This document shows positions 10,644 through 59,231 of a stretch of 64,000 nt of DNA, piece by piece. The notes beneath the pieces were generated by a model. The model was not told the origin of the DNA. It made no database searches and was given only the letters and a program-made list of their open reading frames with translations. Position numbers and translations under genes: made by a program. The DNA comes from Bacilli bacterium (GTDB taxonomy: Bacteria > Bacillota_I > Bacilli_A > RF39 > UBA660): contig JAQUYH010000001.1 in the NCBI GenBank assembly GCA_028691955.1, positions 94,386 to 158,385 of the forward strand, read 5' to 3'. Numbering within the stretch: the stretch's first letter is position 1; each line of letters begins with the position of its first letter.

Positions 10644-12404
10644 ATGCTAGGTAATATAGTATATATCAACGATAACATAGCCCATATTCAAATACCTGAC
10701 GGCACACCAATTGGAGCCAACTTAATGAACATGCATGTTATTTTTGAAGATGAGAGTAAAAAAATATTAGGAGAAGTAGAAGACATTAGTAAAGAAATTA
10801 TTAAAGTGCGCTTCTTAGGAGAAATAGTAAATAACAGTTTTATAGGCGGAGTAATAAGGAAACCATCACTATCAGCAAACTTGCGTATTATAACTAATGA
10901 TGAAGTAAAGCTGATCGTGGGTTCATCAAATGAATCAATAACAATTGGAGAAAGTCCTCTATATGACGGATATCCTATAACAGTAGATATTAACGAATTT
11001 TTTGGCCATCATCTAGCTATATTTGGCAATACCGGTAGTGGTAAGTCATGTGGAGTAGCGAGAATTCTACAAAATGTATTTCAAAATCAAAACATTGTTC
11101 CATATAAGGCAAACTTTCTAATATTTGATTCATATGGCGAATATAAAAATGCTTTTAAAAACATTGGTTCTATTAATTCTAATTTTAATTTCAAATTTTA
11201 TACAACAAGCAAGCCTGAAGAAAATAGCTTTAGCTTAGAAATCCCCCCATGGCTTATGTCAATTGATGACTTTTCTCTACTTCTTGGGGCAGATACACAT
11301 TCACAAATACCAATGATTGAAAGAATGTTAAAACTAACAAGGATATTTGCTTCAAAAGATGATCAAGCCACTAGTTATAAGAATCACTTAATAGCTTCAG
11401 CTATCATGATGATTTTATATACTAATCAGACTTCAGCCAGTAAAAGAAATGATATATTTTCCATATTAAACACGTGCTCAACTAATGAATTTAATTTAGA
11501 AGCTCCAGTTCAAGGAATAGGGTATGTTAGAAAATTTCGTGAATGTTTTTTAATAGATTCAACTGGCCAATTTTCAGAAAGCATTTTACTAACTCAATAT
11601 GTAAGTAGTTTTATAAAAGAAGAATTAAATAAATATGAAGTAGATGATGATTTATTCTTTACTTTAGAAGATGTTGAAAAAGCATTAAACTTTACTTTAA
11701 TTTCAGAAGGACTGCTTAGAAATGAAAAAGCATATAATGATGCCATAACTTTAAAAGTAAGGCTGCATTCACTAGTAATTAGTGAATATGGAAAATTTTT
11801 TAATTATCCAAAATTTATAACACTAGAAAACTATATAGCCAGTTTAGTAACCTATAATGGCAAGAAAGCTCAAATTATTAATTTTAATCTAGAGGATATT
11901 GATGACTCTATAGCAAAAGTAATAGTTAAAATATATACAAGATTACTCTTTGAATTCACAAAAAAATTAACAAAAAGAGCAAGTATACCTTTTCACATCT
12001 TTCTAGAGGAATCACACAGATATGTTCAGCAAGATAATGATAACTTTTTATTAGGATATAACGTGTTTGAAAGAGTGGCCAAAGAGGGAAGAAAATATGG
12101 TTTAGTTTTAGACTTGATAAGTCAAAGACCAGTTGAACTATCGGAAACCGTAATCTCACAGTGTAGTAACTTTTTAATATTTAAAATGACACACCCAAGA
12201 GATATTGAATATATTAAAAAAATGATACCTAATGTAAGTGCTGAAATAATTGAAAAGCAAAAAAGCTTACAACCAGGAACTTGCGTAGCCTTTGGAAGTG
12301 CATTTAAAGTTCCAATGATTATTAAACTAAAGCAAGCTGATCCAGAACCATCCAGTGGTAATAGTGATATATATGCTAATTGGCAGGTAAAAGGGAAACA
12401 ATAA
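10644..12404 (+). CDS. HerA-like ATPase of the FtsK/HerA superfamily (DUF87-type), paralogue 1
   Basis: N-terminal HAS-barrel-like region, Walker A GNTGSGKS, Walker B FHIFLEESHRY, and EGRKYGLVLDLISQRP. Only 10 nt after ylxM. Confidence 0.8.
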   Translation: MLGNIVYINDNIAHIQIPDGTPIGANLMNMHVIFEDESKKILGEVEDISKEIIKVRFLGEIVNNSFIGGVIRKPSLSANLRIITNDEVKLIVGSSNESITIGESPLYDGYPITVDINEFFGHHLAIFGNTGSGKSCGVARILQNVFQNQNIVPYKANFLIFDSYGEYKNAFKNIGSINSNFNFKFYTTSKPEENSFSLEIPPWLMSIDDFSLLLGADTHSQIPMIERMLKLTRIFASKDDQATSYKNHLIASAIMMILYTNQTSASKRNDIFSILNTCSTNEFNLEAPVQGIGYVRKFRECFLIDSTGQFSESILLTQYVSSFIKEELNKYEVDDDLFFTLEDVEKALNFTLISEGLLRNEKAYNDAITLKVRLHSLVISEYGKFFNYPKFITLENYIASLVTYNGKKAQIINFNLEDIDDSIAKVIVKIYTRLLFEFTKKLTKRASIPFHIFLEESHRYVQQDNDNFLLGYNVFERVAKEGRKYGLVLDLISQRPVELSETVISQCSNFLIFKMTHPRDIEYIKKMIPNVSAEIIEKQKSLQPGTCVAFGSAFKVPMIIKLKQADPEPSSGNSDIYANWQVKGKQ

Positions 12405-12502
12405 TATTACATGTAAAAAAATGTAAATTTAAGCAAAAAGATTGTCATTTATTTCTAAATGTGTTAATATTTAAATGTAAGTAAAAGTAAGGTGGTGATG
12501 AT

Positions 12503-12883
12503 ATGAAAAATAAAAAAGGTTTTACATTAATTGAACTTTTAGCCGTTATCGTTATATTAGCGATTATAGCAGTTATAGCAACACCAATAATCTTAGGAGT
12601 AATTGATGATGCTAGAACATCAGCAGCGGAAGATTCGGCTTATGGAGCACTTGATGCAATAAAGTCTTACTACGCCACATCACAAATATCAGCAAGTCCA
12701 GCAGCATTACCTTTGACAATAAATTTTGCCACACCAGCTGATGTTGCATTATTATCAATGTCAGGTACGGTGCCAACAGCAGGGTCAGTTACATTGTCAG
12801 CGGCAGGAGCATTTACTGTAACAGGGTTAACTGTAAACGGATATACATGTACTTATACTAGTGGAGCATTTTCTTGCTCATAA
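12503..12883 (+). CDS. type IV pilin (PilA-like major pilin)
   Basis: prepilin leader MKNKKG|FTLIELLAVIVILAII with Glu+5; C-terminal Cys pair (CTYTSGAFSC); strong RBS AAGGTGGTGA. Confidence 0.8.
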   Translation: MKNKKGFTLIELLAVIVILAIIAVIATPIILGVIDDARTSAAEDSAYGALDAIKSYYATSQISASPAALPLTINFATPADVALLSMSGTVPTAGSVTLSAAGAFTVTGLTVNGYTCTYTSGAFSCS

Positions 12884-12898
12884 TTTAAGGAGAATATT

Positions 12899-13315
12899 AT
12901 GAAAAACAATAAAGGATTTACTTTAATAGAACTTTTAGCTGTTATCGTTATATTAGCGATTATAGCTGTTATAGCAACACCAATAATCTTAGGAGTAATT
13001 GATGATGCTAGGACAAAAGCAGCTGAAAATTCAGCTTATGGAGCACTTGATGCAGTAAAATCATACTATGCTACATCACAAATAGGTGATACTCCAGTAA
13101 CTTTACCAATAACTATTAATTTTGGCACACCAGAAGCAGGTGAGTTGGCAGGCACTGTACTTTCAATGTCAGGTACAAAACCAACAGCAGGAACTATAAC
13201 ACTAGCAACTACTGGAGCATTTACAGTAGGAACAGCATTAACAATTTCTGTAAGTGGAACAAACTATAGTTGTAGTTATGCAAGTAATGAGTTTACTTGT
13301 GCAAAAGCTGCATAA
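12899..13315 (+). CDS. type IV pilin (PilA-like major pilin), paralogue
   Basis: N-terminal 40 aa nearly identical to the previous gene; C-terminal Cys pair (CSYASNEFTC). Confidence 0.8.
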   Translation: MKNNKGFTLIELLAVIVILAIIAVIATPIILGVIDDARTKAAENSAYGALDAVKSYYATSQIGDTPVTLPITINFGTPEAGELAGTVLSMSGTKPTAGTITLATTGAFTVGTALTISVSGTNYSCSYASNEFTCAKAA

Positions 13316-13331
13316 TTAATATATAAATATT

Positions 13332-13358
13332 AAAAGGCCTATATGGCTTTTTTTTTTG
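13332..13358 (+). terminator. rho-independent terminator after the tandem pilin genes
   Basis: AAAAGGCC-TATAT-GGCTTTT then T10. Confidence 0.55.
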
Positions 13359-13404
13359 TTTATTTTGTTATATAATAAATATATATAAAGAATAGAGGTA
13401 ATTT

Positions 13405-15180
13405 ATGCTTGGAAATATTATAGGAATAGAAGATAATAACATATTAATAAAATTAAATGTTGAACTTGATAAAATTCAAAGTTTGATTAACATGTATGTT
13501 GTATTTGATGATAATCAAAAATTAATGGTTGGCGAGATAGTAGATATTAAAGAGGGAATAGCTTCAGTTAATTTGCTAGGAGAGTTAATTAATGATGAGT
13601 TTGTTTTTGGCGTTATAAGAAAACCTTCATTTGGTTCAGGAGTAAAATTAATCAGTAAAGAAAAAATTCCAATGATTATAGGTTCACAATCATATGACGA
13701 AAAAGAAGATTTGATTTTAGGACAAAGCCCAGTATATGATGGAATAAATGTTGGAGTTAATATTAATTCTTTCTTTAACAATCACTTTGCTATTTTTGGC
13801 TCTACTGGTAGTGGTAAATCATGTAGTGTTGCTAGAATATTTCAAAATTTGTTTGAAAAAGAGACAAGCATTCCATATAAAGCAAATATTTTTATTTTTG
13901 ATGCCTATGGAGAATATCACACTGCATTTAGTAAACTACACGATAAAGTTCCAGAAATTAACTTTAAATCGTACACAACTAATTTAGAATTTAGTGAAAC
14001 CGAAATAATTAAAGTTCCGTTATGGTTTTTAGGAGTAGATGATATCGCCCTTTTATTATCAGCAGATAAACACTCACAACTTCCCATAATAGAAAAAGCT
14101 TTAAAATTAATTACCATATTTGCTAAAGAAGAAGAAGTTGTAATTAAACAAAAAAACGATATCATCGCACGTGCTTTATTAGATATTTTAAGTAGTGGTA
14201 GGCCATCTCCTCAAATAAGAGATCAAATATTTTCAATACTATCACATTTTAATACATCAGAATTAAATCTAGAAACAGAAATATTTCAACCAGGCTATAC
14301 CAGACCTTTAAAGCAATGTTTATTAATAGATGCATCAGGTAAAATTAGAGAGATGGAATTAATTACAACATTTATGAATAGTTTTCTAATTGAAAATATA
14401 GATTTAAATCTACCAGATGGAACATTTAAATATACCTTGACTGATTTAAAAGACGCTTTTGACTTTGCTCTAATAAGCGAAGGAATATTAAAGAGTGATA
14501 AAATATATGATGAAACAAATGCTTTAAAAGTAAGATTATATTCATTAGTTAATAGTAATTATAGCAAGTACTTTGATTATCCAGAGTATGTATCAAAAGA
14601 AGCTTATATTAGACAATTATTAACCGCACCAGATGGTAAAAAAGCTCAAATAATAAACTTCAATATAAATTATATTGATGATAGATTTGCTAAAACTTTA
14701 ACCAAGATATATTCAAAATTATTATTTGATTTTGGAAAAGATATAAATAAAAGAACATCTATGCCTTTTCACATAATACTAGAAGAAGCCCATAGATATG
14801 TTCAAAATGATACAGATATCGATTTAATAGGCTATAACATATTTGATAGAATTACCAAAGAAGGTAGAAAATATGGTGTTATCCTAGGCTTAATTACTCA
14901 AAGACCATCAGAAATGAGTGAAACAGCTTTGTCACAATGTAATAACTTTTTAGTATTTAAAATGCTGCACCCAAGGGATGTAACATATATAAAAGACATG
15001 GTTCCAAACATTACGACTGAAATAGTCAAAAGGCTTAGAATTTTGCAACCTGGCACATGTATTGCCTTTGGTGGAGCATTTAAAGTGCCAGTCTTAGTAA
15101 AATTTCAAATGCCAGACCCTGAACCAACAAGTAATAACTGTGACATAATTGATAAATGGTTTGTTACGAAGAAAGGATGA
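13405..15180 (+). CDS. HerA-like ATPase of the FtsK/HerA superfamily (DUF87-type), paralogue 2
   Basis: Walker A GSTGSGKS, Walker B FHIILEEAHRY, and EGRKYGVILGLITQRP. Clearly paralogous to 10644..12404. Confidence 0.8.
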   Translation: MLGNIIGIEDNNILIKLNVELDKIQSLINMYVVFDDNQKLMVGEIVDIKEGIASVNLLGELINDEFVFGVIRKPSFGSGVKLISKEKIPMIIGSQSYDEKEDLILGQSPVYDGINVGVNINSFFNNHFAIFGSTGSGKSCSVARIFQNLFEKETSIPYKANIFIFDAYGEYHTAFSKLHDKVPEINFKSYTTNLEFSETEIIKVPLWFLGVDDIALLLSADKHSQLPIIEKALKLITIFAKEEEVVIKQKNDIIARALLDILSSGRPSPQIRDQIFSILSHFNTSELNLETEIFQPGYTRPLKQCLLIDASGKIREMELITTFMNSFLIENIDLNLPDGTFKYTLTDLKDAFDFALISEGILKSDKIYDETNALKVRLYSLVNSNYSKYFDYPEYVSKEAYIRQLLTAPDGKKAQIINFNINYIDDRFAKTLTKIYSKLLFDFGKDINKRTSMPFHIILEEAHRYVQNDTDIDLIGYNIFDRITKEGRKYGVILGLITQRPSEMSETALSQCNNFLVFKMLHPRDVTYIKDMVPNITTEIVKRLRILQPGTCIAFGGAFKVPVLVKFQMPDPEPTSNNCDIIDKWFVTKKG

Positions 15181-25654: not shown

Positions 25655-26677
25655 ATGAGAAGTTTTGAACTATTATATGGAGAAGGAAAAACAGTTGATT
25701 TATGTTTATCAGCTTTTAGCTACGAAGAACATGGGAAGAAAGTTATAACACTTAATGCAAATAACGAACCAATAATATCTAAAGTTGAGACCTATTATAA
25801 ATATTTAGGAAGAGACTTATCTGATACTATTGGCGATGAACTGCTTCTTGAAAAAGCAATTAGATATAATGAAAAAGGCTTTAGTGCTATATTTGTTGAT
25901 AATGCTCATTTACTATCAGTAAATGATGTTGAACAATTATTTCTTATATCTTTAATATATAATATAAGAGTTGTTTGTTATACCAATAGAGTAGATACCG
26001 AAGGTGCTATTAGATGTTGGGAACTTGCTAATATAATAAAAAGAGTTGATGCTTCCAACGGAAGAAATAGTGATGATGTAACATTTATATATGGAGCAAT
26101 GGATTCATGTAAAACTAGTAGTTTACTAATAAAAGCAGACGTTCTTGAAAGAAGAAAGGGTAAACAAATAATAACAATAAAGCCTAAGTTAGATAGAACG
26201 GAAGAATATATAAAGTCTAGAGTTGGCATTAAAAGGAAAGCTGATTTGGTTATAGATAATACAAAGCCCTTAACTATTCCAAACCTAAAAGGACTTGATA
26301 CTATTCTAGTAGATGAAGCACAATTTTTATCTCCCGATATAATAGAATCTTTAACAGAAAAATGTAAAACGAACGGTATTCATATTATATTTTATGGTTT
26401 AAAGAGTGACTTTCGAACACAATCTTTTCCAGGAAGCAAAAAATTATTTCTATTATCAGATCAACTCATAAAACTTGATACAGTATGTGGTTGTACTAAT
26501 TTTGTTGAATTTAATGCCAGAACTGTAAATGATAGATATGTATATGAAGGAGACCAGTTCGTAGTAGATAATGGTGGTGAAATAGCATATCATTCATTAT
26601 GTGCAAATTGTTACGTAAGAGATGTTTGGCGACTACCAATTAATGATCATAAGGCACTAGTCAAAAGGTATATGTAA
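25655..26677 (+). CDS. tdk: thymidine kinase fused to an N-terminal degenerate TK-like domain
   Basis: C-terminal half aligns end-to-end with E. coli-type Tdk (ILVDEAQFL, YGLKSDFR, Zn ribbon CGC…CANC), but the P-loop is GAMDSCKTS. The N-terminal half is TK-like with GEGKT, VDNAH, and no Zn ribbon. Confidence 0.75.
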   Translation: MRSFELLYGEGKTVDLCLSAFSYEEHGKKVITLNANNEPIISKVETYYKYLGRDLSDTIGDELLLEKAIRYNEKGFSAIFVDNAHLLSVNDVEQLFLISLIYNIRVVCYTNRVDTEGAIRCWELANIIKRVDASNGRNSDDVTFIYGAMDSCKTSSLLIKADVLERRKGKQIITIKPKLDRTEEYIKSRVGIKRKADLVIDNTKPLTIPNLKGLDTILVDEAQFLSPDIIESLTEKCKTNGIHIIFYGLKSDFRTQSFPGSKKLFLLSDQLIKLDTVCGCTNFVEFNARTVNDRYVYEGDQFVVDNGGEIAYHSLCANCYVRDVWRLPINDHKALVKRYM

Positions 26678-26729
26678 TGTATCTTTTTTTTTAAAATAGT
26701 GATAAAATGTATTTAATATAGGAGGATTT

Positions 26730-28940
26730 ATGAAAAAAGGATTTACGCTAATTGAACTAATAGCTGTTATTACAATTATAAGCATTATTGCTTTGATTAC
26801 AACTTCGAGTATATTAGATGTTATTGATACAAGCAAAAAGAAAACAGCACTATTAACTGGTGAAAAAATAATAAGTGCTATAAAAGCTTATAGTGAAACA
26901 TATGAATTAGAAAATGGTGTTCCTTTTTATAATCAAAGATTATCAATAGAAAATCATTCTTTCACAGGAATAGATATATACTTGAATGATATTTTACCAG
27001 AAAAAGGAACAGTTAATATTAGTGATACAGGTGGCGTAACAATAGCTGTTTATAATGATGGTTATTGTGTATCTGGCAGCACTAAAAATTTAAATATTTA
27101 TGAAGGAGAATGCATAGATGTCTTAACAGCACCTTCGTTTACCATAGCTACAACTGAAAGTATTGATCAAAGTACTCTAACAATTATAGTAAATGCAACA
27201 GTATCAGAAGGCCAGGCGCTAGCTACAGAAGCTTATTCATTTGATAATGGAGCTAACTGGCAATCATCAAATGAACACCTTGTTACATCAGAAATTGGTT
27301 CATTTAACAATACAATATTAGTTAGAGATAATACACTTACAAATATTTCATCAAAAGATTTCAATATCAGTAAGCTTACAATAGATGCGAACGGTGGAGT
27401 AATTTCAGGATTAGATGAAACTCAAATATATTGGTTAGAACCGTCTACAATAGTCTCACTTTCAACACCGATAAAAATTGGGAACACATTTAACAATTGG
27501 GTTTTGTCTAGCAACAGCACTACACTTGGAGGGCTAACATATATAATGGGCTCAAGTGAGGAAACTTTAACAGCTAATTGGACCGTTAACACATATGTAT
27601 TAACTGTAAATGTGGATGGAGGAACATGGAGTGGAACAACACCTCAGGAATTACTATATGGAACATCAACCCCAATAAGTGATCCAACAAAAGTAGGAAA
27701 CAGCTTTGTTAGATGGGATAAAACTGGTACTGGAAGTGATTTGACAGAAGGAACTTTCACTATTGGTAATGAAAATGCAACATTAACAGCTATATGGTCA
27801 GTAAATGAATATATTTTAACAGTAGATAGTAATGGAGGAACGTGGAGTGGAACAACACCTCAAACTCTTGCTTATGGAACAACAATACCTATTAACTATC
27901 CAACAAAAACAAACTATACATTTACAGGGTGGAGTAAGTCTAATGAGAACAGTAATATAGATGAAACATCATTCACTATGGGTGATAGTAATATCACACT
28001 AACTGCAACATGGCTATTAACTTCTTGCGTACTAACAGTAGATGCTAATGGAGGGGCCTGGAGTGGAACAACACCTCAAACTTTAGCAATCGGGTCAACG
28101 ACAAATATTGTCAATCCTACGAAATCCGGAAGCGTTTTTGCAGGATGGCAAGTGTCAAGTGGAAGCAGCAATATAAGTGGGACTACGTTCACAATGGGGA
28201 ATGAAGATACTACTTTAACGGCATTGTGGTATACATATGAAGATATGTTCACATATACAGGAACTTATACTGTAATAGATGATGGTAATGGAAATTGGCG
28301 AATAAAATTTTTAACAAGTGGAACATTTACCCCTAAAGTAGATTTTACAATTGATGCGTTCTTAGTAGGAGGCGGAGGTGGCGGCTGCAGTCAATATGGA
28401 GGCGGCGGCGGTGGTGGTTATACCGCAACACACAGTAGTATAGCCATTACAAAAAATACCGCTTATACAATAACTAGAGGATCAGGCGGCGGCTTGAATC
28501 GTACTGGAGGAACAACCACGGCCTTTGGATACTCAGTTTCTGGTGGTAAACCAGGCGTAACTTGGAATGGTGGTAATGGTGGCTCTGGCGGCGGAGGCCA
28601 TAGTAATGATGCCGTCGGAGGAAATGGCGGTAGCAACGGAGGCAACGGAGGTTCTTCGGCAGGTAATGCTGGTGGAACTGGGCAAGGAACAACAACAAGA
28701 GAATTTGGAGAAAGAACAGGCACACTATATTCAGGTGGTGGAGCTGGCGGTGGTATTCACTTAAAATATAATGGTGGCTCTGGTGGCTCTGGCGGTGGGG
28801 CTCACGGGTCAGTAACCTTAACTTATGCAACTGCAAACACTGGTGGTGGCGGAGGCGGTGGCAATGGCTATGACACCCTTAGCAGTGCCTACGCAACAGG
28901 TGGTGCTTCTGGAATTGTAGTTATAAGAAACCATCGTTAA
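26730..28940 (+). CDS. large modular type IV pilin-like protein with four Listeria-Bacteroides (Flg_new) repeats and a C-terminal Gly-rich domain
   Basis: prepilin leader MKKG|FTLIELIAVITIISII (Glu+5); repeats VLTVDANGG.WSGTTPQ…PTK.G..F.GW; C-terminal roughly 190 aa of GGxGG-type sequence. Confidence 0.75.
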   Translation: MKKGFTLIELIAVITIISIIALITTSSILDVIDTSKKKTALLTGEKIISAIKAYSETYELENGVPFYNQRLSIENHSFTGIDIYLNDILPEKGTVNISDTGGVTIAVYNDGYCVSGSTKNLNIYEGECIDVLTAPSFTIATTESIDQSTLTIIVNATVSEGQALATEAYSFDNGANWQSSNEHLVTSEIGSFNNTILVRDNTLTNISSKDFNISKLTIDANGGVISGLDETQIYWLEPSTIVSLSTPIKIGNTFNNWVLSSNSTTLGGLTYIMGSSEETLTANWTVNTYVLTVNVDGGTWSGTTPQELLYGTSTPISDPTKVGNSFVRWDKTGTGSDLTEGTFTIGNENATLTAIWSVNEYILTVDSNGGTWSGTTPQTLAYGTTIPINYPTKTNYTFTGWSKSNENSNIDETSFTMGDSNITLTATWLLTSCVLTVDANGGAWSGTTPQTLAIGSTTNIVNPTKSGSVFAGWQVSSGSSNISGTTFTMGNEDTTLTALWYTYEDMFTYTGTYTVIDDGNGNWRIKFLTSGTFTPKVDFTIDAFLVGGGGGGCSQYGGGGGGGYTATHSSIAITKNTAYTITRGSGGGLNRTGGTTTAFGYSVSGGKPGVTWNGGNGGSGGGGHSNDAVGGNGGSNGGNGGSSAGNAGGTGQGTTTREFGERTGTLYSGGGAGGGIHLKYNGGSGGSGGGAHGSVTLTYATANTGGGGGGGNGYDTLSSAYATGGASGIVVIRNHR

Positions 28941-28956
28941 CTGTAAATATAATTAA

Positions 28957-28981
28957 AAAGTACAGAAAGTACTTTTTTTTT
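28957..28981 (+). terminator. rho-independent terminator after the modular pilin
   Basis: AAAGTAC-AGAAA-GTACTTT then T9. Confidence 0.6.
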
Positions 28982-40303: not shown

Positions 40304-41686
40304 TTAAAATGAAACTTCTTCTATTGTATATGGTTTATGTTCCTCTTTAGGTGTCTCATTACCATTTTGCAAATTATCTTCTTGTTTAACTCCCTTATTA
40401 ACTATAGGTTCTTCTTTTTTTTCTTGCTTTTTATTTGAATGCAGAGCAATATTAGTAGCATCTAAAGAAGATTTTAAATCCATTTTTCCATAAGATTTAT
40501 CATCACTTTCAAGCTCAATAATCTTAAGTAGCTCTTCAACAGTGGTAAGACCACTTTCAACTTTTTCCAAACCATCTTGAATTAAAGTAGTAACATCAGA
40601 ATTATAAACAAGTTCTCTTAATTCCTCACGTTCCATATCATTACTTATAGCATCTTTTATTAGCTCATCTATAAGTAAAACTTCATGAATAGCAATACGA
40701 CCAGAATAACCATTATTACACTGTTCACAACCCTCAGCTATATATACTTCATTAACATCTTTATTTAATACAGTTTTAAATAAGTGCTTTTCATAATCAT
40801 TTGTAGGCCTTTTCTTTCTACAATTAGGGCAAAGCTTTCTAGCAAGTTTCTGTGAAACAATTCCTGTTAAAGAACTAGCGAGTAAATATCTTTCAACACC
40901 CATATCAACTAATCTTTCAATAGTTGTAAGAGAATCATTAGTATGTAGAGTAGACAATACAATATGACCAGTAATAGAGGCACGAACAGCAATTTTAGCT
41001 GTTTCAGTATCACGAATTTCACCAATCATTATAACATCAGGGTCCTGACGTAAAATACTTCTTAAAGCATTAGCAAACGTTAAACCAATTTCACTATTTG
41101 TTTGAACTTGGTTAATACCTTCGATATTCATTTCAATTGGGTCTTCAACAGTAATAACATTGGTTTCTTCTCGATTAAGTCGTTGCAAAATAGAGTAAAC
41201 AGTAGTAGATTTACCACTACCAGTAGCTCCTGTTACTAAAACAATACCGTTAGGTATACTAATCATTTTAAGAATTTTATGATAATTACTTTCACTAAAC
41301 CCTAAATGTTCAAGTCCACTTAAACTCAAAGAATAATCCAAAATACGAATAACTATTTTCTCACCCAAATTAGTAGGTAGACAGCTAACGCGCAAATCTA
41401 AATCTAAATCTTTTAAAGTAGTTTTAATAGCGCCATCCTGAGGTAATCTAGACTCAGTTATATTCATTCCAGAAATAATTTTAACACGAGTAATTAAGTT
41501 TTTACGTATAGTATTAGGTACTTCAGCGTAATCAATTAAACTACCATCTATTCTAATTCTGATTTTCATAAACTCTTCATGAGCATCCATATGAATATCA
41601 GAAGCTCCTCTTTTAGCAGCGTCCACTAATATTTCATTTACTACCTCAACAACAGGCATTTTTTCAAAGTCAAAAATTTTTAACAT
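40304..41686 (-). CDS. pilB: type IV pilus/type II secretion assembly ATPase (PilB/GspE family), short N-terminus, disordered C-terminal tail
   Basis: Walker A GATGSGKSTT, Asp box, Walker B DPDVIMIGEIRD, His box LSTLHTN, tetracysteine CPNC…CEQC. Confidence 0.85.
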   Translation of the reverse strand: MLKIFDFEKMPVVEVVNEILVDAAKRGASDIHMDAHEEFMKIRIRIDGSLIDYAEVPNTIRKNLITRVKIISGMNITESRLPQDGAIKTTLKDLDLDLRVSCLPTNLGEKIVIRILDYSLSLSGLEHLGFSESNYHKILKMISIPNGIVLVTGATGSGKSTTVYSILQRLNREETNVITVEDPIEMNIEGINQVQTNSEIGLTFANALRSILRQDPDVIMIGEIRDTETAKIAVRASITGHIVLSTLHTNDSLTTIERLVDMGVERYLLASSLTGIVSQKLARKLCPNCRKKRPTNDYEKHLFKTVLNKDVNEVYIAEGCEQCNNGYSGRIAIHEVLLIDELIKDAISNDMEREELRELVYNSDVTTLIQDGLEKVESGLTTVEELLKIIELESDDKSYGKMDLKSSLDATNIALHSNKKQEKKEEPIVNKGVKQEDNLQNGNETPKEEHKPYTIEEVSF

Positions 41687-41768
41687 TTCTTCATCCCCTT
41701 AGCCATTTAGACTAGATTTTATTCTTAATTTATTATATAATAGTTTTTAGATAAAAACAATAAGGAAA

Positions 41769-42992
41769 GTGATATTTGTGAGGAAAAATAGTCAAAAGGG
41801 TTTTATGTTAGCCGAGACGCTTATAGTAGCTAGTTTCATTTCCATAACCCTTATATATCTGTTTGTACAATTTAGAAATATAAATAATAATTATAGTGAT
41901 ACTATCATGTATAACAGTGTAAATGGATTGTATATAAATAATGAAATAAAAAAATTTATAAGTCAATACGATATGGATGATTTATCACAACAAATTGCAT
42001 ATTCTGATTTAGGATATTATGATCTAACAAGTTGTAATGCAGATATATTTACAGACACCGAATATTGTGAAGAGTTCTTTTCTAGGCTGAATATTAAAAC
42101 AGCAATTTATACTTTTGAGAAAGTAAATGTTATCAGTACAGAATTTTCAAGTAAATTTATCGATTTTCTCCAATCAGTACAAGTAGATAATAGTTATATG
42201 TATATAATAGCAACAGAATTTAATGATGGGTCATTCGCTAGTATTAGATTAGATGGATATAGTTATCCGACTTTAGAAGATAATATAAAAAAGCAATCCA
42301 TTGTTACAACAGGAGATGGACTATATGAAAACTCAACAACGGAATACTTATTTAAAGGAGCAAGTGTTAATAACAATATAAATGTTTATGGATATAAGGG
42401 TAAAATAATTTCTATAACCAGCCAAGGCATAAAAGTACTATTATCAAAAGAGGAGAACCTAAGTTTTGATAATACGACAGCTTTTTACACAAAAGATGGT
42501 CTTTTAACACATGGAAGCTATGAAGCAGATTCTAAAACCAATAGTCTTTTATTTGCTAGTTTAAATAAAATGTGTTCTAACTGTGAAGATATAATAACTA
42601 ATGTTAACTGGAATGTTGGCAAAATTACTACTTTAGTAGGTAATTCCTTAAGCAATATTCTAACAAACGAGGCTAGTACAATATATAGAGCACAAGACAA
42701 TTCAGGTTATGTAGGCACATTAAGCGTTAGCGATATTTTAAAATCTTCAAGCGATTCTTCTTGCAATTATTCAAGTATAACCTCTGACTGTTTAAATAAT
42801 AATTGGCTAGTCGATGGTAATATATGGACATTTAATTCTAATTCATCAAATACAGTATGGTCTGTTACTAGTGGGGCTTTTGCCAATAGTAATATAACAG
42901 ATATAAAAGATGCTTATGCTGTCGTTTATTTAAATGGTAGTATGCGTGCTATTGGAAGCGGCACTATAGAGGATCCTTACCGAGCATTATAG
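41769..42992 (+). CDS. large type IV pilin-like (minor pilin/pseudopilin-like) protein
   Basis: leader MIFVRKNSQKG|FMLAETLIV with Glu+5; 407 aa; C-terminal GSGTIEDPY motif. Confidence 0.65.
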   Translation: MIFVRKNSQKGFMLAETLIVASFISITLIYLFVQFRNINNNYSDTIMYNSVNGLYINNEIKKFISQYDMDDLSQQIAYSDLGYYDLTSCNADIFTDTEYCEEFFSRLNIKTAIYTFEKVNVISTEFSSKFIDFLQSVQVDNSYMYIIATEFNDGSFASIRLDGYSYPTLEDNIKKQSIVTTGDGLYENSTTEYLFKGASVNNNINVYGYKGKIISITSQGIKVLLSKEENLSFDNTTAFYTKDGLLTHGSYEADSKTNSLLFASLNKMCSNCEDIITNVNWNVGKITTLVGNSLSNILTNEASTIYRAQDNSGYVGTLSVSDILKSSSDSSCNYSSITSDCLNNNWLVDGNIWTFNSNSSNTVWSVTSGAFANSNITDIKDAYAVVYLNGSMRAIGSGTIEDPYRAL

Positions 42993-43006
42993 AGAGGGAA
43001 GATAAT

Positions 43007-46000
43007 ATGAAAAAAGTGATTCTGTTTTTAGTTATTTTTATAGCTTTTTTCATTGTACCCAAAAACTTAGATGCTGAAGTAAGTACATACACAGTATATA
43101 CAATTAATAACTTAGGAGAAGAAAGCGCTCCAACTACATATACTGATTATTCATTAGCTTTAGCTAAAATGAATTCATATGAAAAAAATATTGATATTGT
43201 TTCAGTAATAAAAAAAGACGGAACGCTAGTTAATGCTAAATATGCCGTAGCTAAACTAAATAGTTCATCTACAATAAACATCTATAATAATTCTTCTTTA
43301 TCAGGAACGGCATATACTTATGTTTCTGGAGGCGATTATGGAATTGATGCAGCTTTTCTTGATTATGATACAGCCTACAACACTGTAAAAATAAAAATTA
43401 GCGGTTACGCTGGATGGGTTAGACTAGATCAAGTAAAAATCGTCCCACTATCAACAATTTCTACACAATATGTGACAATAAATAGTGCCAGTGCCGCATT
43501 ATATACAACCAATACAGCAACAGGATATATTAAAACATTGCAACAGAATGCTCCATACGTTTGGGATACAAAAGCTGTTGTAAGTGGCGTAACATGGTAC
43601 CACATATCAGAGCCAGGAACAGTAGGTTGGGTAAGTAGTGCAAACAGTGCAGTAACAGAAGAAAAAAGACCATATTTAAATACATATTATGTTAGATTTA
43701 ACTTTGAAAATGCCAGCAAACCATGGGATTTATATCATTCTTTTGGTTATAGATCAGGAACAAGTGAACTAGTTGGCTTAATTAATCTTGGAATAGCTCC
43801 CACAATGTTAGATATCAATAGATACTATTATAGCTTTGATGGAAATTATTTTTATACAGATTTTCTAGATATGTTAGATGACTACAAAAGTGGAGTATAC
43901 ACACATAGTATTAATGCAACTAATCCATATTATAATTATTATTTATATTTACCAAATCATAGTAAAACAGGATACACTGCCGAAAACTTTGACCAAATTA
44001 TAAGTAACACATACACATCAAACATAGAAAAAAAGCTTAAAGTTAACGCATCAAATGTGAATTTAAAACTTAGTGCTTCAGAAACTTCTTCTACAATCGT
44101 AGCATTACCAATTAATTTTACTTATTATTATGATGATCAAAAAACAATAGATAGTATAGACTGGTATCACTTAATAGGCATTACTATTAATGGCACAAGC
44201 TACACAGGCTGGGTAAGTAATAATATAGATAAAACAAGACTTATTACAACATATGTGACCTCAACTGGAACCTGGACAACACTTGAAAGAACAGGAATAT
44301 CATTAATGTACGGTGAAGGGGCAGACTTTATAGAGAGCCAGGAAACTTATGGAATTAATGCTCTGTTAACATTCTCAGCTGCCATTAATGAATCAGCAAC
44401 TGGTACTAGTGTATTAGCATTCTTAAAGAATAACATTTTTGGACATGGTGCTTATGATAGTTGTCCTCTTACATGTGCTATAACTTATGATACAGTAAGA
44501 GATGCCATCATGGCTCATGCAAGGGATTATTCTGGAGAATATAGTAATCCAAGCGATGACCGTTACTTTGGAAGTCATTATGGAAATAAAGGAAGTGGAA
44601 TGAATATAAAATACGCTTCTGATCCGTATTGGGGTGAAAAAGCGGCAGCCAACGCTTATAACAGAGATTTAATGTTTGGTGCTCAAGATTATGAGTCAAA
44701 CACCATAGGTATTAAAGTAACTGATGCAGCTATTCCTATAAAAAAAGAGCCATCGGATGATTCAGATACAATATATGAAATTAAAAACAATTACTTTTTA
44801 GTGGCCAATGTTCCATATATAGTAATTGATAGAGTAAAAGATGAAGATGGTGATTATTGGTACAAAGTTTATACTGATGTGGCTCTTGATGAAAATCAAG
44901 ATATTACTGATGATTATTATTCATTTTCACATAGCTATGGTTACATAAAAGCAGAATACTTAAATGTGAAAAATAACCAACCAAATATAACAGCTTCAGA
45001 TATTACGTTAGAACAAGGTATAACCCCATATGATTTAATGGAAGGTGTTACAGCAACTGATGCTGAAGATGGTAACATTACGTCAAACATTGATTATACA
45101 ACCAATATAGATATAACCCAATATGGAACATATCAAGTTACATATACTGTTACCGATAGTCAAAAATTTTCAGTGTCCAAGACAGTAGCAATAACTGTAT
45201 ATAAAAGCAATACGCCAGTAATAACAGCATCTGACAAGTCTGTATTACAGAATACAACATTTGATCCTTTAGCAGGCGTTAGTGTAAATGATCCAAATGA
45301 AGGTAACATTACAGATAAACTAGTAATTGATTCTAACAATGTTGACCTAACAAAAGTAGGAACATATAAAATTGTATATAGCGTTACTAATTTATTAAAC
45401 ATAAAAACAACAAAAGAAATTACAGTAACTGTTTTATCTAATGCCTCACCTGTTATAAGAGCTGCTGACATTTATATGAATGTTAATGATAGTTTAACTT
45501 ATCTAGAAAACGCATCAGCTATTGATTTAGAAGATGGGGTTATAACAAATAAAATAACCATGACTAATAATATTGACAAAACAAAAGCAGGAACGTATGA
45601 TTTAACATATTCAGTTACTGATAGTAATAATAATGTAGTAACTAAAAGCATAAAAGTTTATGTTTCAAGTAATACATATACTACAAAAACAGGAGAACTA
45701 TATTTTAACTCACTAAATTATAATCCGGATACAAATATGTTAGAAGTTAGTGGATCTTTAGCTATTATTGGTATTGACAACACTAAAGATACAAGTATCA
45801 CATATGATTTAATACTAAAGAATAATGTATCTGGTTATGAAATAGTCTTACCTTTAGAAAGATACTTAACAAACCATCCAACAACAGTATATAGTGATAC
45901 AACACATAGTTATACGGAAACTTGGTTTAAAGGTAGTGTAAGTCTTAAAAACGTAACAAAAGGGGAGTATACATTATACGTAAGAGCTAGAAGTGGCAAT

Positions 46001-46615
46001 TATGAATCAAAAATTTTATTTAATAATCTATTTTTAAAATCAATGACCAAAAAAGCTACAGATAGTGATGGAAGAGGATACCTATTTAGAAATAATAATT
46101 ACATGAAAGAATTCCCTATTGAATTATTTGTTTATGAAAATGGTTTAATCACTACTACTGAAGCAACTTCTACAGCTAATATGTTTAATACATATAGTAC
46201 TATTGATTTAAGCAGTAAATATTTAAAAATAGTAGGAAATTCATTTAATATGAACGGTAACTATGCCGAAAGCAAGACAATAGAAAGATATATAGTATTT
46301 GAAAACATAACAACAGAAAAAAGATATTCATATAATATAGGATCATTTGTCGGCGAAGAACTAATACTAAGAACAAATGATGGCCTTTCAAAAGCAAGAT
46401 CTTGGTTTGATACTAAAGAATTAGTTGATGTAACTAAATTACCAGTAGGGAGATATATAATATATTTAAGAACTAAATCAGCAGGTGTAGATGATTTTGG
46501 AGAACTGCAAGACTTATTTTTAAATGCTACAGATAGTGTCACATTAGACGGTAAAAAATATAGCTTGATAGTAAATAAAAATGCAAGATTTAGAGTGGAA
46601 TTATTAATAGAATAG
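43007..46615 (+). CDS. giant secreted cell-wall hydrolase-like protein (GH73 glucosaminidase-like core, SH3b-like and three DUF5011/Ig-like repeats)
   Basis: signal peptide; AAINESATG…NNIFG…YASDPYWG resembles GH73; repeats of ITASD…EDGNIT…GTY.VTYTVTD; 14 nt after the previous gene. Confidence 0.55.
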   Translation: MKKVILFLVIFIAFFIVPKNLDAEVSTYTVYTINNLGEESAPTTYTDYSLALAKMNSYEKNIDIVSVIKKDGTLVNAKYAVAKLNSSSTINIYNNSSLSGTAYTYVSGGDYGIDAAFLDYDTAYNTVKIKISGYAGWVRLDQVKIVPLSTISTQYVTINSASAALYTTNTATGYIKTLQQNAPYVWDTKAVVSGVTWYHISEPGTVGWVSSANSAVTEEKRPYLNTYYVRFNFENASKPWDLYHSFGYRSGTSELVGLINLGIAPTMLDINRYYYSFDGNYFYTDFLDMLDDYKSGVYTHSINATNPYYNYYLYLPNHSKTGYTAENFDQIISNTYTSNIEKKLKVNASNVNLKLSASETSSTIVALPINFTYYYDDQKTIDSIDWYHLIGITINGTSYTGWVSNNIDKTRLITTYVTSTGTWTTLERTGISLMYGEGADFIESQETYGINALLTFSAAINESATGTSVLAFLKNNIFGHGAYDSCPLTCAITYDTVRDAIMAHARDYSGEYSNPSDDRYFGSHYGNKGSGMNIKYASDPYWGEKAAANAYNRDLMFGAQDYESNTIGIKVTDAAIPIKKEPSDDSDTIYEIKNNYFLVANVPYIVIDRVKDEDGDYWYKVYTDVALDENQDITDDYYSFSHSYGYIKAEYLNVKNNQPNITASDITLEQGITPYDLMEGVTATDAEDGNITSNIDYTTNIDITQYGTYQVTYTVTDSQKFSVSKTVAITVYKSNTPVITASDKSVLQNTTFDPLAGVSVNDPNEGNITDKLVIDSNNVDLTKVGTYKIVYSVTNLLNIKTTKEITVTVLSNASPVIRAADIYMNVNDSLTYLENASAIDLEDGVITNKITMTNNIDKTKAGTYDLTYSVTDSNNNVVTKSIKVYVSSNTYTTKTGELYFNSLNYNPDTNMLEVSGSLAIIGIDNTKDTSITYDLILKNNVSGYEIVLPLERYLTNHPTTVYSDTTHSYTETWFKGSVSLKNVTKGEYTLYVRARSGNYESKILFNNLFLKSMTKKATDSDGRGYLFRNNNYMKEFPIELFVYENGLITTTEATSTANMFNTYSTIDLSSKYLKIVGNSFNMNGNYAESKTIERYIVFENITTEKRYSYNIGSFVGEELILRTNDGLSKARSWFDTKELVDVTKLPVGRYIIYLRTKSAGVDDFGELQDLFLNATDSVTLDGKKYSLIVNKNARFRVELLIE

Positions 46616-51041: not shown

Positions 51042-51162
51042 TAAATTTGACTTTTTATTAAAAAGTGCTATAATACATATTGCAGGGAAGGGAAATAAGG
51101 TAATATTTCCCTCTCCATTTTTTATAAATTTGACAAATTATATATGTTATGTTAGAATCTTA

Positions 51163-51758
51163 GACATTGATGGCACATTATTCTAGTCAGGATAATTTGT
51201 TATGAAGGCGGGGGTAAAATACCGTTAAAGAGCATATCTATGAAGCTTTTGGTGCTTGCTTCTTACGCCCAGTCTGGGGTGAGTGCTGGAAGGTATAAAC
51301 TATGGGCATCCGTAATGGCATACGATAGTGACCCACAGTTTAGTTGAAGACCTATTTTATATTTAATATATAATAGGAAAACCTACCATATGGCGAAAGT
51401 TATGGGTAGCGTAGCTTGTCTTGAGTGATAATAGGGGATAGTTAATCTATTTTAAATAGTATGGCCGTATTATTTAAATATTGGAATTTGAAACTATTAT
51501 TGCAAAAAAGAATAATAACAAATGAAACCTGTTGAGGAAATCTCCTAGGGTGTTGCATAATATAGGATTACAGTGCGTACTAAGTGGTAATCAAGTCGTA
51601 TATTTGGTGACAATATACTTGTTTCTTTAAAAGGGAACTGCTATACTGGTAACGGATAGTAGAAACAAGGGAAATCCTACTTGACCTATGACGTAAAGTT
51701 AACTATATTAAAGTCCAATCAAACCAAAGGTATATGTGTTTACATATATTTTTTTTTA
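51163..51758 (+). ncRNA. ole: large structured non-coding RNA, candidate OLE RNA
   Basis: about 600-nt ORF-free GC-enriched tract; own promoter TTGACA-17-TAGAAT (51130-51158); terminator hairpin TATATGT/ACATATA plus T9 (51731-51757); immediately upstream of a small 4-TM protein. Confidence 0.5.
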
Positions 51759-51785: not shown

Positions 51786-52319
51786 ATGGCAAAGAAAAAC
51801 AAACAAAATATTACAAAATGGATTGTTAAAATTTCAATTTTAGCTTTCATTATTTCCTTTTCACTATCGGCTTTATCAGAAGCATTGCTTCCTAAAATAA
51901 ATATAATAATAGGTATAATTATACTACTAATATTTATTTTTATCGGCGTTTTATTTGATATGATAGGAGTAGCTTTTACGTCAGCTGATGAAGAACCTTT
52001 TCATGCCCAGAGCTCAAGAAAAGTGCATGGAGCATCTACTGCTGTAAAACTAATTAAAAATGCACCTAGAGTCTCTAGCTTCTGTAATGATGTTGTAGGT
52101 GACATCTGTGGTATTTTATCAGGTAGCGCAGGTGTTGTTATAGCAGCGGGATTAATTAGTAATATGCATTTAAATAGTTACATAACAGCTCTAACAGTAA
52201 CCGCTATAATTTCATCTTTAACTATAGGGTTAAAAGCTATAGGAAAAGAAATAGCAATAAAGAACAATACAAAAATAATTTCAGCTTTTTCCAAAACAAT
52301 ATCAATATTTTATAAATAA
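51786..52319 (+). CDS. oapA: small four-TM membrane protein, candidate OapA (OLE-associated protein A)
   Basis: 177 aa; four predicted TMs; DVVGD (DxxxD) motif; immediately downstream of the ncRNA. Confidence 0.55.
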   Translation: MAKKNKQNITKWIVKISILAFIISFSLSALSEALLPKINIIIGIIILLIFIFIGVLFDMIGVAFTSADEEPFHAQSSRKVHGASTAVKLIKNAPRVSSFCNDVVGDICGILSGSAGVVIAAGLISNMHLNSYITALTVTAIISSLTIGLKAIGKEIAIKNNTKIISAFSKTISIFYK

Positions 52320-58134: not shown

Positions 58135-58209
58135 TGCCGATTTAGTTAAGTGGTATAACAGATCCATGGTAAGGATCAGTGGACAGTCCGATTCTGTCAT
58201 TCGGCACCA
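58135..58209 (+). tRNA. tRNA-Thr (anticodon GGU) with encoded CCA
   Basis: cloverleaf: acceptor GCCGATT/ATTCGGC, D-arm GTTA-AGTGGTA-TAAC, anticodon stem GATCC/GGATC with loop ATGGTAA, T-arm GACAG-TCCGATT-CTGTC, 3' ACCA. Coordinates +/-2 nt. Confidence 0.7.
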
Positions 58210-58499: not shown

Positions 58500-59231
58500 A
58501 TGAAAATATTATTAGATGAACTTACAAACAAAAACAGGAAAGGAGTAACACTAAACTGTTTCTCACCACTTGTTATGATAATAACTTTTGCAATAGAAAT
58601 TTCTTTAGCTGTTTATACTTTTATCAAAAGCCGTAAAGCAAAATCAGATGTAGGGATTGTTATTGTATTGGTTTTTTTGGCAACATTTCAATTATCAGAA
58701 TACCAAATATGTGATGGTAAGGATGCATTACTTTGGTCTAGAATAGGCTTATTTGCCATAACCTTCTTACCTGTAATGGGAGTATATTTAATATCAAAGT
58801 TGAAAAAAGAAGCAAAGCTATTAAAAATAGGTTTTGCGATAGCTATTGCTTTTGCCATATTCTTTGTATTTATACCTAAAACAATCAATGGAGCCACATG
58901 TGGGGGAAATTATATTATATTTGATATCAAATCAAGTATACACTCTTTATATGGGTACTATTATTTAGGATTCCTATTTATAGGTATAATCCAAGCATTT
59001 AAAGGAATGCAAAATGAAGAAAATAAAAAGTCTATAAAAAAAGCTTTAAAATGGTTTATTATTGGTTATCTATCATTTATTTTGCCCCTTACTTTAGTAT
59101 ACATAATAATACCTATTACTAGAGTAGCGGTAACATCAATCATGTGCGGATTTGCAGTAATATTTGCATTTATTATTACATTCAAGATAGCTCCTATTTA
59201 TCATGAAAATATCAAACTAAAAAACAAATAA
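58500..59231 (+). CDS. polytopic membrane protein (about 7 TM), hypothetical
   Basis: RBS AAGGAGAA; hydrophobic throughout. Confidence 0.5.
   Translation: MKILLDELTNKNRKGVTLNCFSPLVMIITFAIEISLAVYTFIKSRKAKSDVGIVIVLVFLATFQLSEYQICDGKDALLWSRIGLFAITFLPVMGVYLISKLKKEAKLLKIGFAIAIAFAIFFVFIPKTINGATCGGNYIIFDIKSSIHSLYGYYYLGFLFIGIIQAFKGMQNEENKKSIKKALKWFIIGYLSFILPLTLVYIIIPITRVAVTSIMCGFAVIFAFIITFKIAPIYHENIKLKNK

Follow-up and report, generated by a model that had tools for sequence, protein, structure and literature searches.

The 64-kb window analysed here (64,000 nucleotides of contig JAQUYH010000001.1 of a Bacilli bacterium; all positions are those of the window) contains at 26730..28940, on the + strand, a gene whose 736-residue product is a multi-module type IV pilin. 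From the N- to the C-terminus it is composed of a prepilin leader, a pilin module, an Ig/FN3-like spacer, four Flg_new units and a 232-residue C-terminal domain. Judging from its modelled structure, the last of these is homologous to the glycine-rich domains of the phage proteins Pam3 gp24 and Bxb1 gp33 and, more distantly, to the ligand-binding domain of ALK/LTK. We regard the gene product as probably a minor pilin, and most likely an adhesin of the pilus tip. The types of module involved are already known on pilins, but their combination and the link to phage receptor-binding domains are undescribed.

The open reading frame (ORF) starts with ATG and is unbroken over 2,211 nt, and the coordinates, strand and length that a first-pass annotation of this DNA had given for the gene are exact. 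The identical protein is present in NCBI as MDD3186976.1, under the name 'MAG: InlB B-repeat-containing protein [Bacilli bacterium]', MAG standing for metagenome-assembled genome. A Shine-Dalgarno sequence, AGGAGG (26720-26725, +), is read from the sequence 4 nt before the start codon; an extended -10-like element, TGATAAAAT (26700-26708, +), read in the same way, is considered a candidate only, because a consensus promoter scan of the region gave no more sites than shuffled sequences (16 promoter-like sites against 14.9 expected, no excess). Fifteen nt past the stop codon, at 28955..28981 (+), lies a terminator-like hairpin with a 9-bp stem (AAAAAGUAC/GUACUUUUU) and a 5-nt loop, followed by a U-run. 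This AT-rich hairpin was spotted by eye and then confirmed by folding (-9.7 kcal/mol, z -3.5, with 0 of 200 shuffles folding as well), and was missed by a GC-based scan, which returned 0 terminators. The ORF is real and intact, with a ribosome-binding site and a terminator-like hairpin, and the pseudogene that the first-pass annotation had allowed for finds no echo in this DNA, where the frame is uninterrupted. A scan of genome contigs for relatives returned no close relative and three distant loci, with identities of 26-31%; run SRR22315505, which may come from the same sample as the MAG, has a Logan contig that encodes exactly this product.

The pilin module, the spacer and the repeats

The protein begins with a class III (prepilin) leader, MKKG (aa 1-4, 26730..26741, +), for which cleavage is predicted after Gly4. 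The N-terminus, MKKG/FTLIELIAVITIISIIALITT (MKKG/FTLIELIAV..., the slash marking the predicted cleavage), has the features of a class III signal peptide, with Gly at -1, Phe at +1 and Glu at +5. It is recognised above cut-off both by Pfam N_methyl (PF07963, aa 2-24, 25.8 bits against 21.2) and by the NCBIfam prepilin motif TIGR02532 (31.2 bits against 16.3). In the family alignment Gly(-1) is present in 40/40 rows and Glu(+5) in 39/40, Phe(+1) is also conserved, and several homologues have the same MKKG/F leader.

The pilin module proper (aa 5-130, 26742..27119, +) comprises a hydrophobic alpha1N segment, a long alpha1 helix and a beta-sheet head. In the AlphaFold2 (AF2) model the alpha1 helix would span residues 7-62 (56 residues) and the strands of the head residues 69-125, the extended N-terminal helix being packed on an antiparallel beta-sheet head. 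The module ends in a pair of cysteines, Cys113/Cys128, which is conserved wherever relatives can be aligned at this point. The window also holds two small prepilin genes, 14 kb upstream of the large one, which encode 126 and 138 aa (12503..12883 and 12899..13315, +) and are candidate major pilins; the large pilin is 35-36% identical to them over about 105 residues (E 1e-8 and 5e-8). Because this similarity runs well beyond the helix, aa 5-130 can be taken, on sequence and model together, as a complete pilin and more than a signal peptide. A search with aa 1-215 points the same way: it retrieved stand-alone pilins, 120-146 aa long, that share 36-42% identity with the query across 50-60% of its 215 aa (about 110-130 aa), and JGI names one of these PilA. 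The first-pass annotation had placed the N-terminal helix in the family of the two small pilins; the relationship is confirmed and extends into the head.

A beta-sandwich spacer of Ig/PKD/FN3-like type, with the motif AYSFDNGANWQ, follows the pilin at aa ~134-213 (27129..27368, +) and had been absent from the first-pass description. After it come four Flg_new units, also known as InlB B-repeats, which together occupy aa 214-504 (27369..28241, +): unit 1 at aa 214-288 (27369-27593, +), unit 2 at aa 289-360 (27594-27809, +), unit 3 at aa 361-432 (27810-28025, +) and unit 4 at aa 433-504 (28026-28241, +). Flg_new (PF09479) scores 76 bits over four stretches and TIGR02543 53 bits, both above curated thresholds, and Flg_new_2 is also above its Pfam gathering score; the repeats are found to start at aa 216, 291, 363 and 435. 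The four Flg_new repeats of the first-pass annotation are thus recognised by both Pfam and TIGR02543, but not at the length of about 80 aa given there, the units measuring 75, 72, 72 and 72 aa. In the model they would adopt the beta-grasp B-repeat fold, matching 2Y5P, and be arranged as beads on a string. The units are old duplications and not an assembly artefact, because Tandem Repeats Finder detected no repeat of about 216 nt at the DNA level. Adhesin-like proteins with Flg_new units are common in gut-associated microbes, where they are putative adhesins. The internalin domain and the GW anchor of InlB are connected by just one repeat, whereas here tandem repeats follow a pilin, where they most likely form a stalk.

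[quoted passage not shown]

The C-terminal domain (aa 505-736, 28242..28937, +) is of the TNF-like plus glycine-rich, putatively polyglycine-II-type, kind and belongs to Pfam Gly_rich_2, with conserved glycine motifs and variable loops. Gly_rich_2 (PF21722) matches aa 530-733 along positions 3-224 of its 226-position profile, with 48.6 bits where the cut-off is 24.3, and a family profile scores the protein at 265 bits (E 7e-74). The 232-residue domain starts at about aa 505 (MFTYTGTY...), some 40 residues ahead of the glycine runs, and ends at the last residue of the protein; the family consensus, FTYTGTY..IDDG.GNWRIKFLTSGTF...FLVGGGGGG...GQGTTTREFGE...GGSGIVIIRNHR, has the same limits, its start preceding the glycine runs and its end coinciding with the C-terminus. 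Glycine makes up 71 of the 192 residues (37%) in aa 545-736, where the first-pass annotation had put it at about 50%, and 32% of the whole domain. The same annotation had described the tail as neither collagen GXY nor RTX, and this holds: there are no GXY runs and one GGxGxD match. In particular, a collagen-like triple helix was rejected on the lack of any run of at least three GXY triplets in aa 545-736, and an RTX beta-roll on the finding of a single GGxGxD at aa 710 with no tandem array and of no RTX family in Pfam/NCBIfam.

The domain is not a new family, and the first-pass annotation, which had left room for a match to a known one, is overtaken by PF21722 and its solved structural homologues. 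A search with aa 515-736 returned at least 2,555 relatives, most of them about 250 aa long and carrying PF21722 only, and a profile search of 1.84 billion cluster representatives gave 8,260 matches at E <= 1e-3 and 1,147 at E <= 1e-30. Many relatives have two to six tandem copies of the domain. An alignment of 120 sequences shows the conserved glycine motifs to be separated by loops that vary and are prone to indels, a pattern shared with the phage proteins, and this variability of aligned sequences is consistent with binding. In the present protein the variable loops lie at aa 553-556, 607-613, 624-631, 676-684, 692-701 and 712-724. PHROGs gave only phrog_2295, of unknown function, and when the tail was compared by tblastn with 50,697 phage records a single unannotated match resulted, because low-complexity filtering was on. 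A literature search found no paper on PF21722/Gly_rich_2 or on a pilin plus a polyglycine domain. Among the Gly_rich_2 proteins are also P0294, of 1,999 aa, and others with up to six tandem domains, while some, such as P0199, have an ordinary N-terminal membrane anchor and no prepilin motif; its use is therefore not confined to phage tail proteins and pilins but takes in several other kinds of surface protein.

All domain junctions are modelled with confidence by AF2, no segment having a predicted local distance difference test score (pLDDT) below 50. For the tip domain the pLDDT is 94.8; between aa 605 and 728 DSSP assigns almost no helix or strand, and most 10-residue blocks have a mean pLDDT above 85, a pattern that speaks indirectly for a polyglycine-II geometry. 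The best structural match of the modelled domain is the tail 'wing brush' gp33 of mycobacteriophage Bxb1 (9D93_Qa, score 17.7, 34% identity), followed by the tail fibre gp24 of cyanophage Pam3 (7YPX_A, 15.2, 25%), the glycine-rich domain of human ALK (7LRZ_A, 7.2, 17%) and several TNF-family ligands (about 2.7, low identity). Foldseek gives the same top matches. When the PDB was searched by sequence, with the tail by itself or as a 120-sequence profile, no match was significant, and the phage and ALK structures were reached by fold searches only; HMMER composition filters probably hide glycine-rich matches in sequence searches. Between the two folds that the first-pass annotation had proposed for the tail, the beta-roll is not supported and the polyglycine-II-like structure is, in that the model superposes on Bxb1 gp33 and the Pam3 fibre, which are described as bundles of polyproline-II/polyglycine-II (PPII/PGII) helices.

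Pam3 gp24 has three domains, one helical, one TNF-like and one glycine-rich; the last is a lattice of glycine-rich motifs with a hypervariable distal tip that recognises the host receptor, and it is related to ALK and to the adhesin gp38 of S16 (PMC9608196). In a 2026 paper the domains of both Pam3 and Bxb1 are assigned to the class of PPII-helical bundles (PMC13243192). Bxb1 gp33 is a 230-residue accessory tail protein attached via gp30 and gp31, and a related phage has no gp33 (PMC12646305). The setting of the present domain is different from all of these. Pam3 gp24 (7YPX) forms a trimer through an N-terminal helical bundle and requires a chaperone, whereas here the domain follows a pilin and a repeat stalk within a single chain, and no chaperone gene is adjacent. 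The gp38 adhesin of Salmonella phage S16 (6F45) caps the gp37 fibre, and its likeness to our domain is taken from the literature only. Bxb1 gp33 (PDB 9D93, chain Qa) is a tail accessory of undefined function, while our domain sits on a pilin. The TNF-like plus glycine-rich (TG) domain of ALK/LTK (PF12810) is distant (17-23% identity), falls in a different Pfam family and belongs to a cytokine-binding metazoan receptor tyrosine kinase. One stand-alone homologue, P0130 (249 aa), is encoded within a tail module of a prophage, after tape-measure and Prophage_tail genes and before holin and amidase genes, a position expected for a receptor-binding or tail-accessory protein. At loci L001 (8001-8750) and L002 (6753-7502) a 249-aa stand-alone Gly_rich_2 protein is encoded beside a small CBM_5_12 protein, just upstream of holin/amidase.

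Relatives, proposed function and alternatives

Among all the proteins retrieved, at least 46 have both a prepilin N-terminus and between one and three Gly_rich_2 domains. The prepilin motif is present in 28/28 relatives read directly, several of which had been missed by the precomputed Pfam annotation, and the order of domains is the same in homologues that come from many samples. Because 28 of 28 relatives have the motif and 46 retrieved proteins share the combination, we conclude from these comparisons that the architecture is selected and not accidental. The first-pass annotation had called the protein a modular pilin, and this agrees with its class III signal peptide, its modelled helix and beta-sheet head, its homology to pilins and the recurrence of the architecture in dozens of homologues.

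Some relatives carry another domain at the end. P0005, 43% identical over 80% of the query, ends in PF12810 (ALK_LTK_GRD-type) and not in Gly_rich_2, and the same is true of P0009 (MDD3187504.1) and P0017 (MDD3187314.1), which share the pilin module and the spacer motif; P0002 (MDD3187602.1) has additional Flg_new units and two Gly_rich_2 domains. The present protein and these last three are probably from the same MAG, because their NCBI accession numbers are neighbours (MDD3186976, MDD3187314, MDD3187504 and MDD3187602, a span of 626). The apparent occurrence of at least four paralogues with different terminal domains in this genome suggests a repertoire of alternative tips. At 50-59% identity, Gly_rich_2 tails from pilins are interspersed with those from stand-alone proteins, stand-alone tails being 55-59% identical to ours against 52% for the copy in the apparent same-genome paralogue, which ranked 136th. 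The GC content at third codon positions (GC3) is 0.26 in the last module against 0.10-0.18 in the neighbouring and small-pilin genes measured, most of the excess being accounted for by Gly codons. Identity ranks and GC3 hint weakly at module exchange or a recent acquisition of the tail from phage. That uncultured gut Bacilli may carry pili with interchangeable tips of the phage-tail type, exchanged with prophage tail genes and directed at other bacteria rather than at host tissue, is a speculative extension which we think distinctly improbable. If the repertoire reading were true, attachment to partners, predation or the choice of DNA donors would be possible, and pili would borrow the host-range logic of phage tail fibres.

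With its N_methyl motif, four Flg_new units and Gly_rich_2 domain, the protein falls under the definition of modular pilins given by Raynaud et al. in 2021, in a catalogue of 264 architectures (PMC8179133). That catalogue lists pilins with Flg_new (IPR013378 in one, two, three or five copies) and pilins with the glycine-rich PF12810, not both together, and PF21722 is absent from its dataset (PMC8179133). The remark of the first-pass annotation that it did not recognise the combination is to this extent upheld, but its picture of an unfamiliar glycine-rich region gives way to PF21722. PilB and PilC of Streptococcus sanguinis, with a vWA and a lectin module respectively, resemble our protein in joining an N-terminal pilin to a module that is not pilus-specific, and their host is a monoderm (PMC8179133). 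Such modular pilins are predicted or shown to be at the tip, where they mediate adhesion (PMC8179133). Our protein differs from PilB and PilC in having three added kinds of module in series (Ig-like spacer, four Flg_new units and Gly_rich_2) and a terminal module of the phage-tail type, neither vWA nor lectin.

We propose that a prepilin peptidase would cut after Gly4, and that the hydrophobic alpha1 helix would then pack into the core of a filament of small pilins, extended by a PilB-like ATPase. The extension of about 600 residues would be too bulky for the body of the filament, and because of this bulk the subunit would be placed at the tip, as argued for S. sanguinis PilB (PMC8179133). There the repeat stalk would hold the terminal domain away from the fibre, and the variable loops between the glycine motifs would bind a surface ligand, protein or glycan, on host material or on another cell. 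Several points weigh against this pilus-tip adhesin. We infer filament incorporation, tip location and binding alike; the presence of the paralogues in one genome is deduced only from neighbouring accession numbers; and the polyglycine-II character depends on superposing a model on structures that others describe so. The phage homologues act within tail assemblies, such as the Pam3 gp24 trimer, whereas a pilin tip would present one copy, although ALK-type domains do function as single chains. Finally, a search of the window's ORFs turned up no gene for a PilC platform (T2SSF), a PilD peptidase (Peptidase_A24) or PilT, and the large pilin gene stands as an orphan, flanked by a thymidine-kinase-like gene and ppdK.

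The last two points would sit well with a class III signal peptide that serves for export and anchoring only, the protein being an adhesin of the cell surface or of a short pseudopilus. In the archaeon Sulfolobus, the bindosome consists of sugar-binding proteins that are exported and anchored via class III signal peptides. A prepilin-type N-terminus on a large functional protein is common to both cases, a functional analogy between proteins whose domains are unrelated; the ATPase of the window has a far sub-threshold match to the bindosome ATPase model. Moreover, this lineage puts prepilin N-termini on many large proteins with unrelated C-terminal modules, the genome has apparently at least four to five such genes, each an orphan among housekeeping genes, and the protein has no other anchor, its C-terminus reading ...IVVIRNHR. 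Anchoring alone, however, would not call for a complete pilin head homologous to the small stand-alone pilins of the same window, which are candidate major pilins and are accompanied by a PilB-type ATPase, and S. sanguinis PilB and PilC are bulky modular pilins that are built into true pili (PMC8179133). We therefore hold a mere anchor to be unlikely, though it deserves to be kept in mind, and continue to prefer the pilus-tip adhesin.

The phage likeness of aa 505-736, whose closest structures and many sequence relatives are phage tail proteins, could also indicate a tail-fibre gene that derives from a phage, or a recent phage-host chimera, in either case without any role in pili. The somewhat raised GC3 of the last module and the prophage-type stand-alone homologues, as similar to it (55-59%) as the apparent paralogue (52%), go in this direction, but the GC excess comes mostly from Gly codons, the flanking genes are housekeeping ones and, unlike P0130, the gene is not in a phage tail morphogenesis module; the recurrence of the pilin-to-tip architecture in at least 46 proteins with conserved prepilin motifs makes such an origin very improbable. 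Slighter still is the chance that the gene is a pseudogene, or an artefact of assembly or gene calling in which a pilin and an unrelated surface protein were fused. The DNA comes from a metagenome-assembled genome, and the best relative available for a check of the frame is at most 53% identical; against this stand the uninterrupted 2,211 nt with their ribosome-binding site and terminator-like hairpin, the identical product in SRR22315505, possibly the same sample, the domain order kept in homologues from many samples and the confident model at all domain junctions.

If the protein is indeed a pilus-tip adhesin, the binding domain of phage tail proteins and ALK/LTK would also be the business end of a type IV pilus, mounted on a stalk and exchangeable between paralogues. 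It would be a testable candidate adhesin for poorly known uncultured gut Bacilli, and a populated architecture, of at least 46 retrieved proteins, would be added to the catalogue of modular pilins. It would also offer a single-chain, chaperone-free setting in which to study polyglycine-II lattices that present variable binding loops. The concept of modular pilins is unchanged by the finding, and a pilus specialist would not be greatly surprised by it.

Genomic surroundings

The gene is preceded by addB, addA, a xerC/D-like gene and a tdk-like gene and followed by ppdK and an arylsulfotransferase gene, and no phage genes are among these neighbours. In other genomes too, members of the family are orphans among housekeeping genes. 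The thymidine-kinase-like ORF (25655-26677) encodes 340 aa, with the thymidine kinase domain at aa 142-320 and about 140 N-terminal residues unexplained.

The two small pilin genes stand, within 10644-15180, between genes for two paralogous HerA/DUF87-type ATPases (586 and 591 aa), and the whole block lies between ftsY-ylxM and a PFOR gene. These ATPases match the models for anti-phage HerA and the CedD DNA translocase, but below threshold. A HerA-type partner is unusual for pilin genes, and a function in DNA transfer or uptake might be considered.

The only type IV pilus machinery gene recognised in the window is that of the PilB/GspE-type assembly ATPase (459 aa, 40304..41686, -), which scores 423.7 bits with Pfam T2SSE; its best NCBIfam models are GspE (495 bits) and PilB (488 bits), both under their equivalog cut-offs. 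Divergent from it is a fourth prepilin-like gene (407 aa, 41769..42992, +), with the N-terminal motif ...KG/FMLAETLIVASFISITLIYLF (KG/FMLAE), a weak ComGD match at the N-terminus and no Pfam domain. In the same region (40304-46615) the 407-aa gene is followed by that of a 1,202-aa protein with glucosaminidase and Bact_surface_Ig-like domains, which may be a peptidoglycan hydrolase serving the pilus.

Further along, a full-length OLE (Ornate Large Extremophilic) RNA is found at 51154-51734 (+; RF01071, 374 bits, E 2e-106). The ORF after it (51786-52319) encodes a 177-aa membrane protein with a sub-threshold match to the CNNM transmembrane domain, which may be an OapA-like partner. A single tRNA gene (58136-58206, +) is followed by an ORF of 243 aa (58500-59231) with weak, sub-threshold matches to pilin-like families of conjugative type IV secretion systems (PF18895, Mbov_0395).

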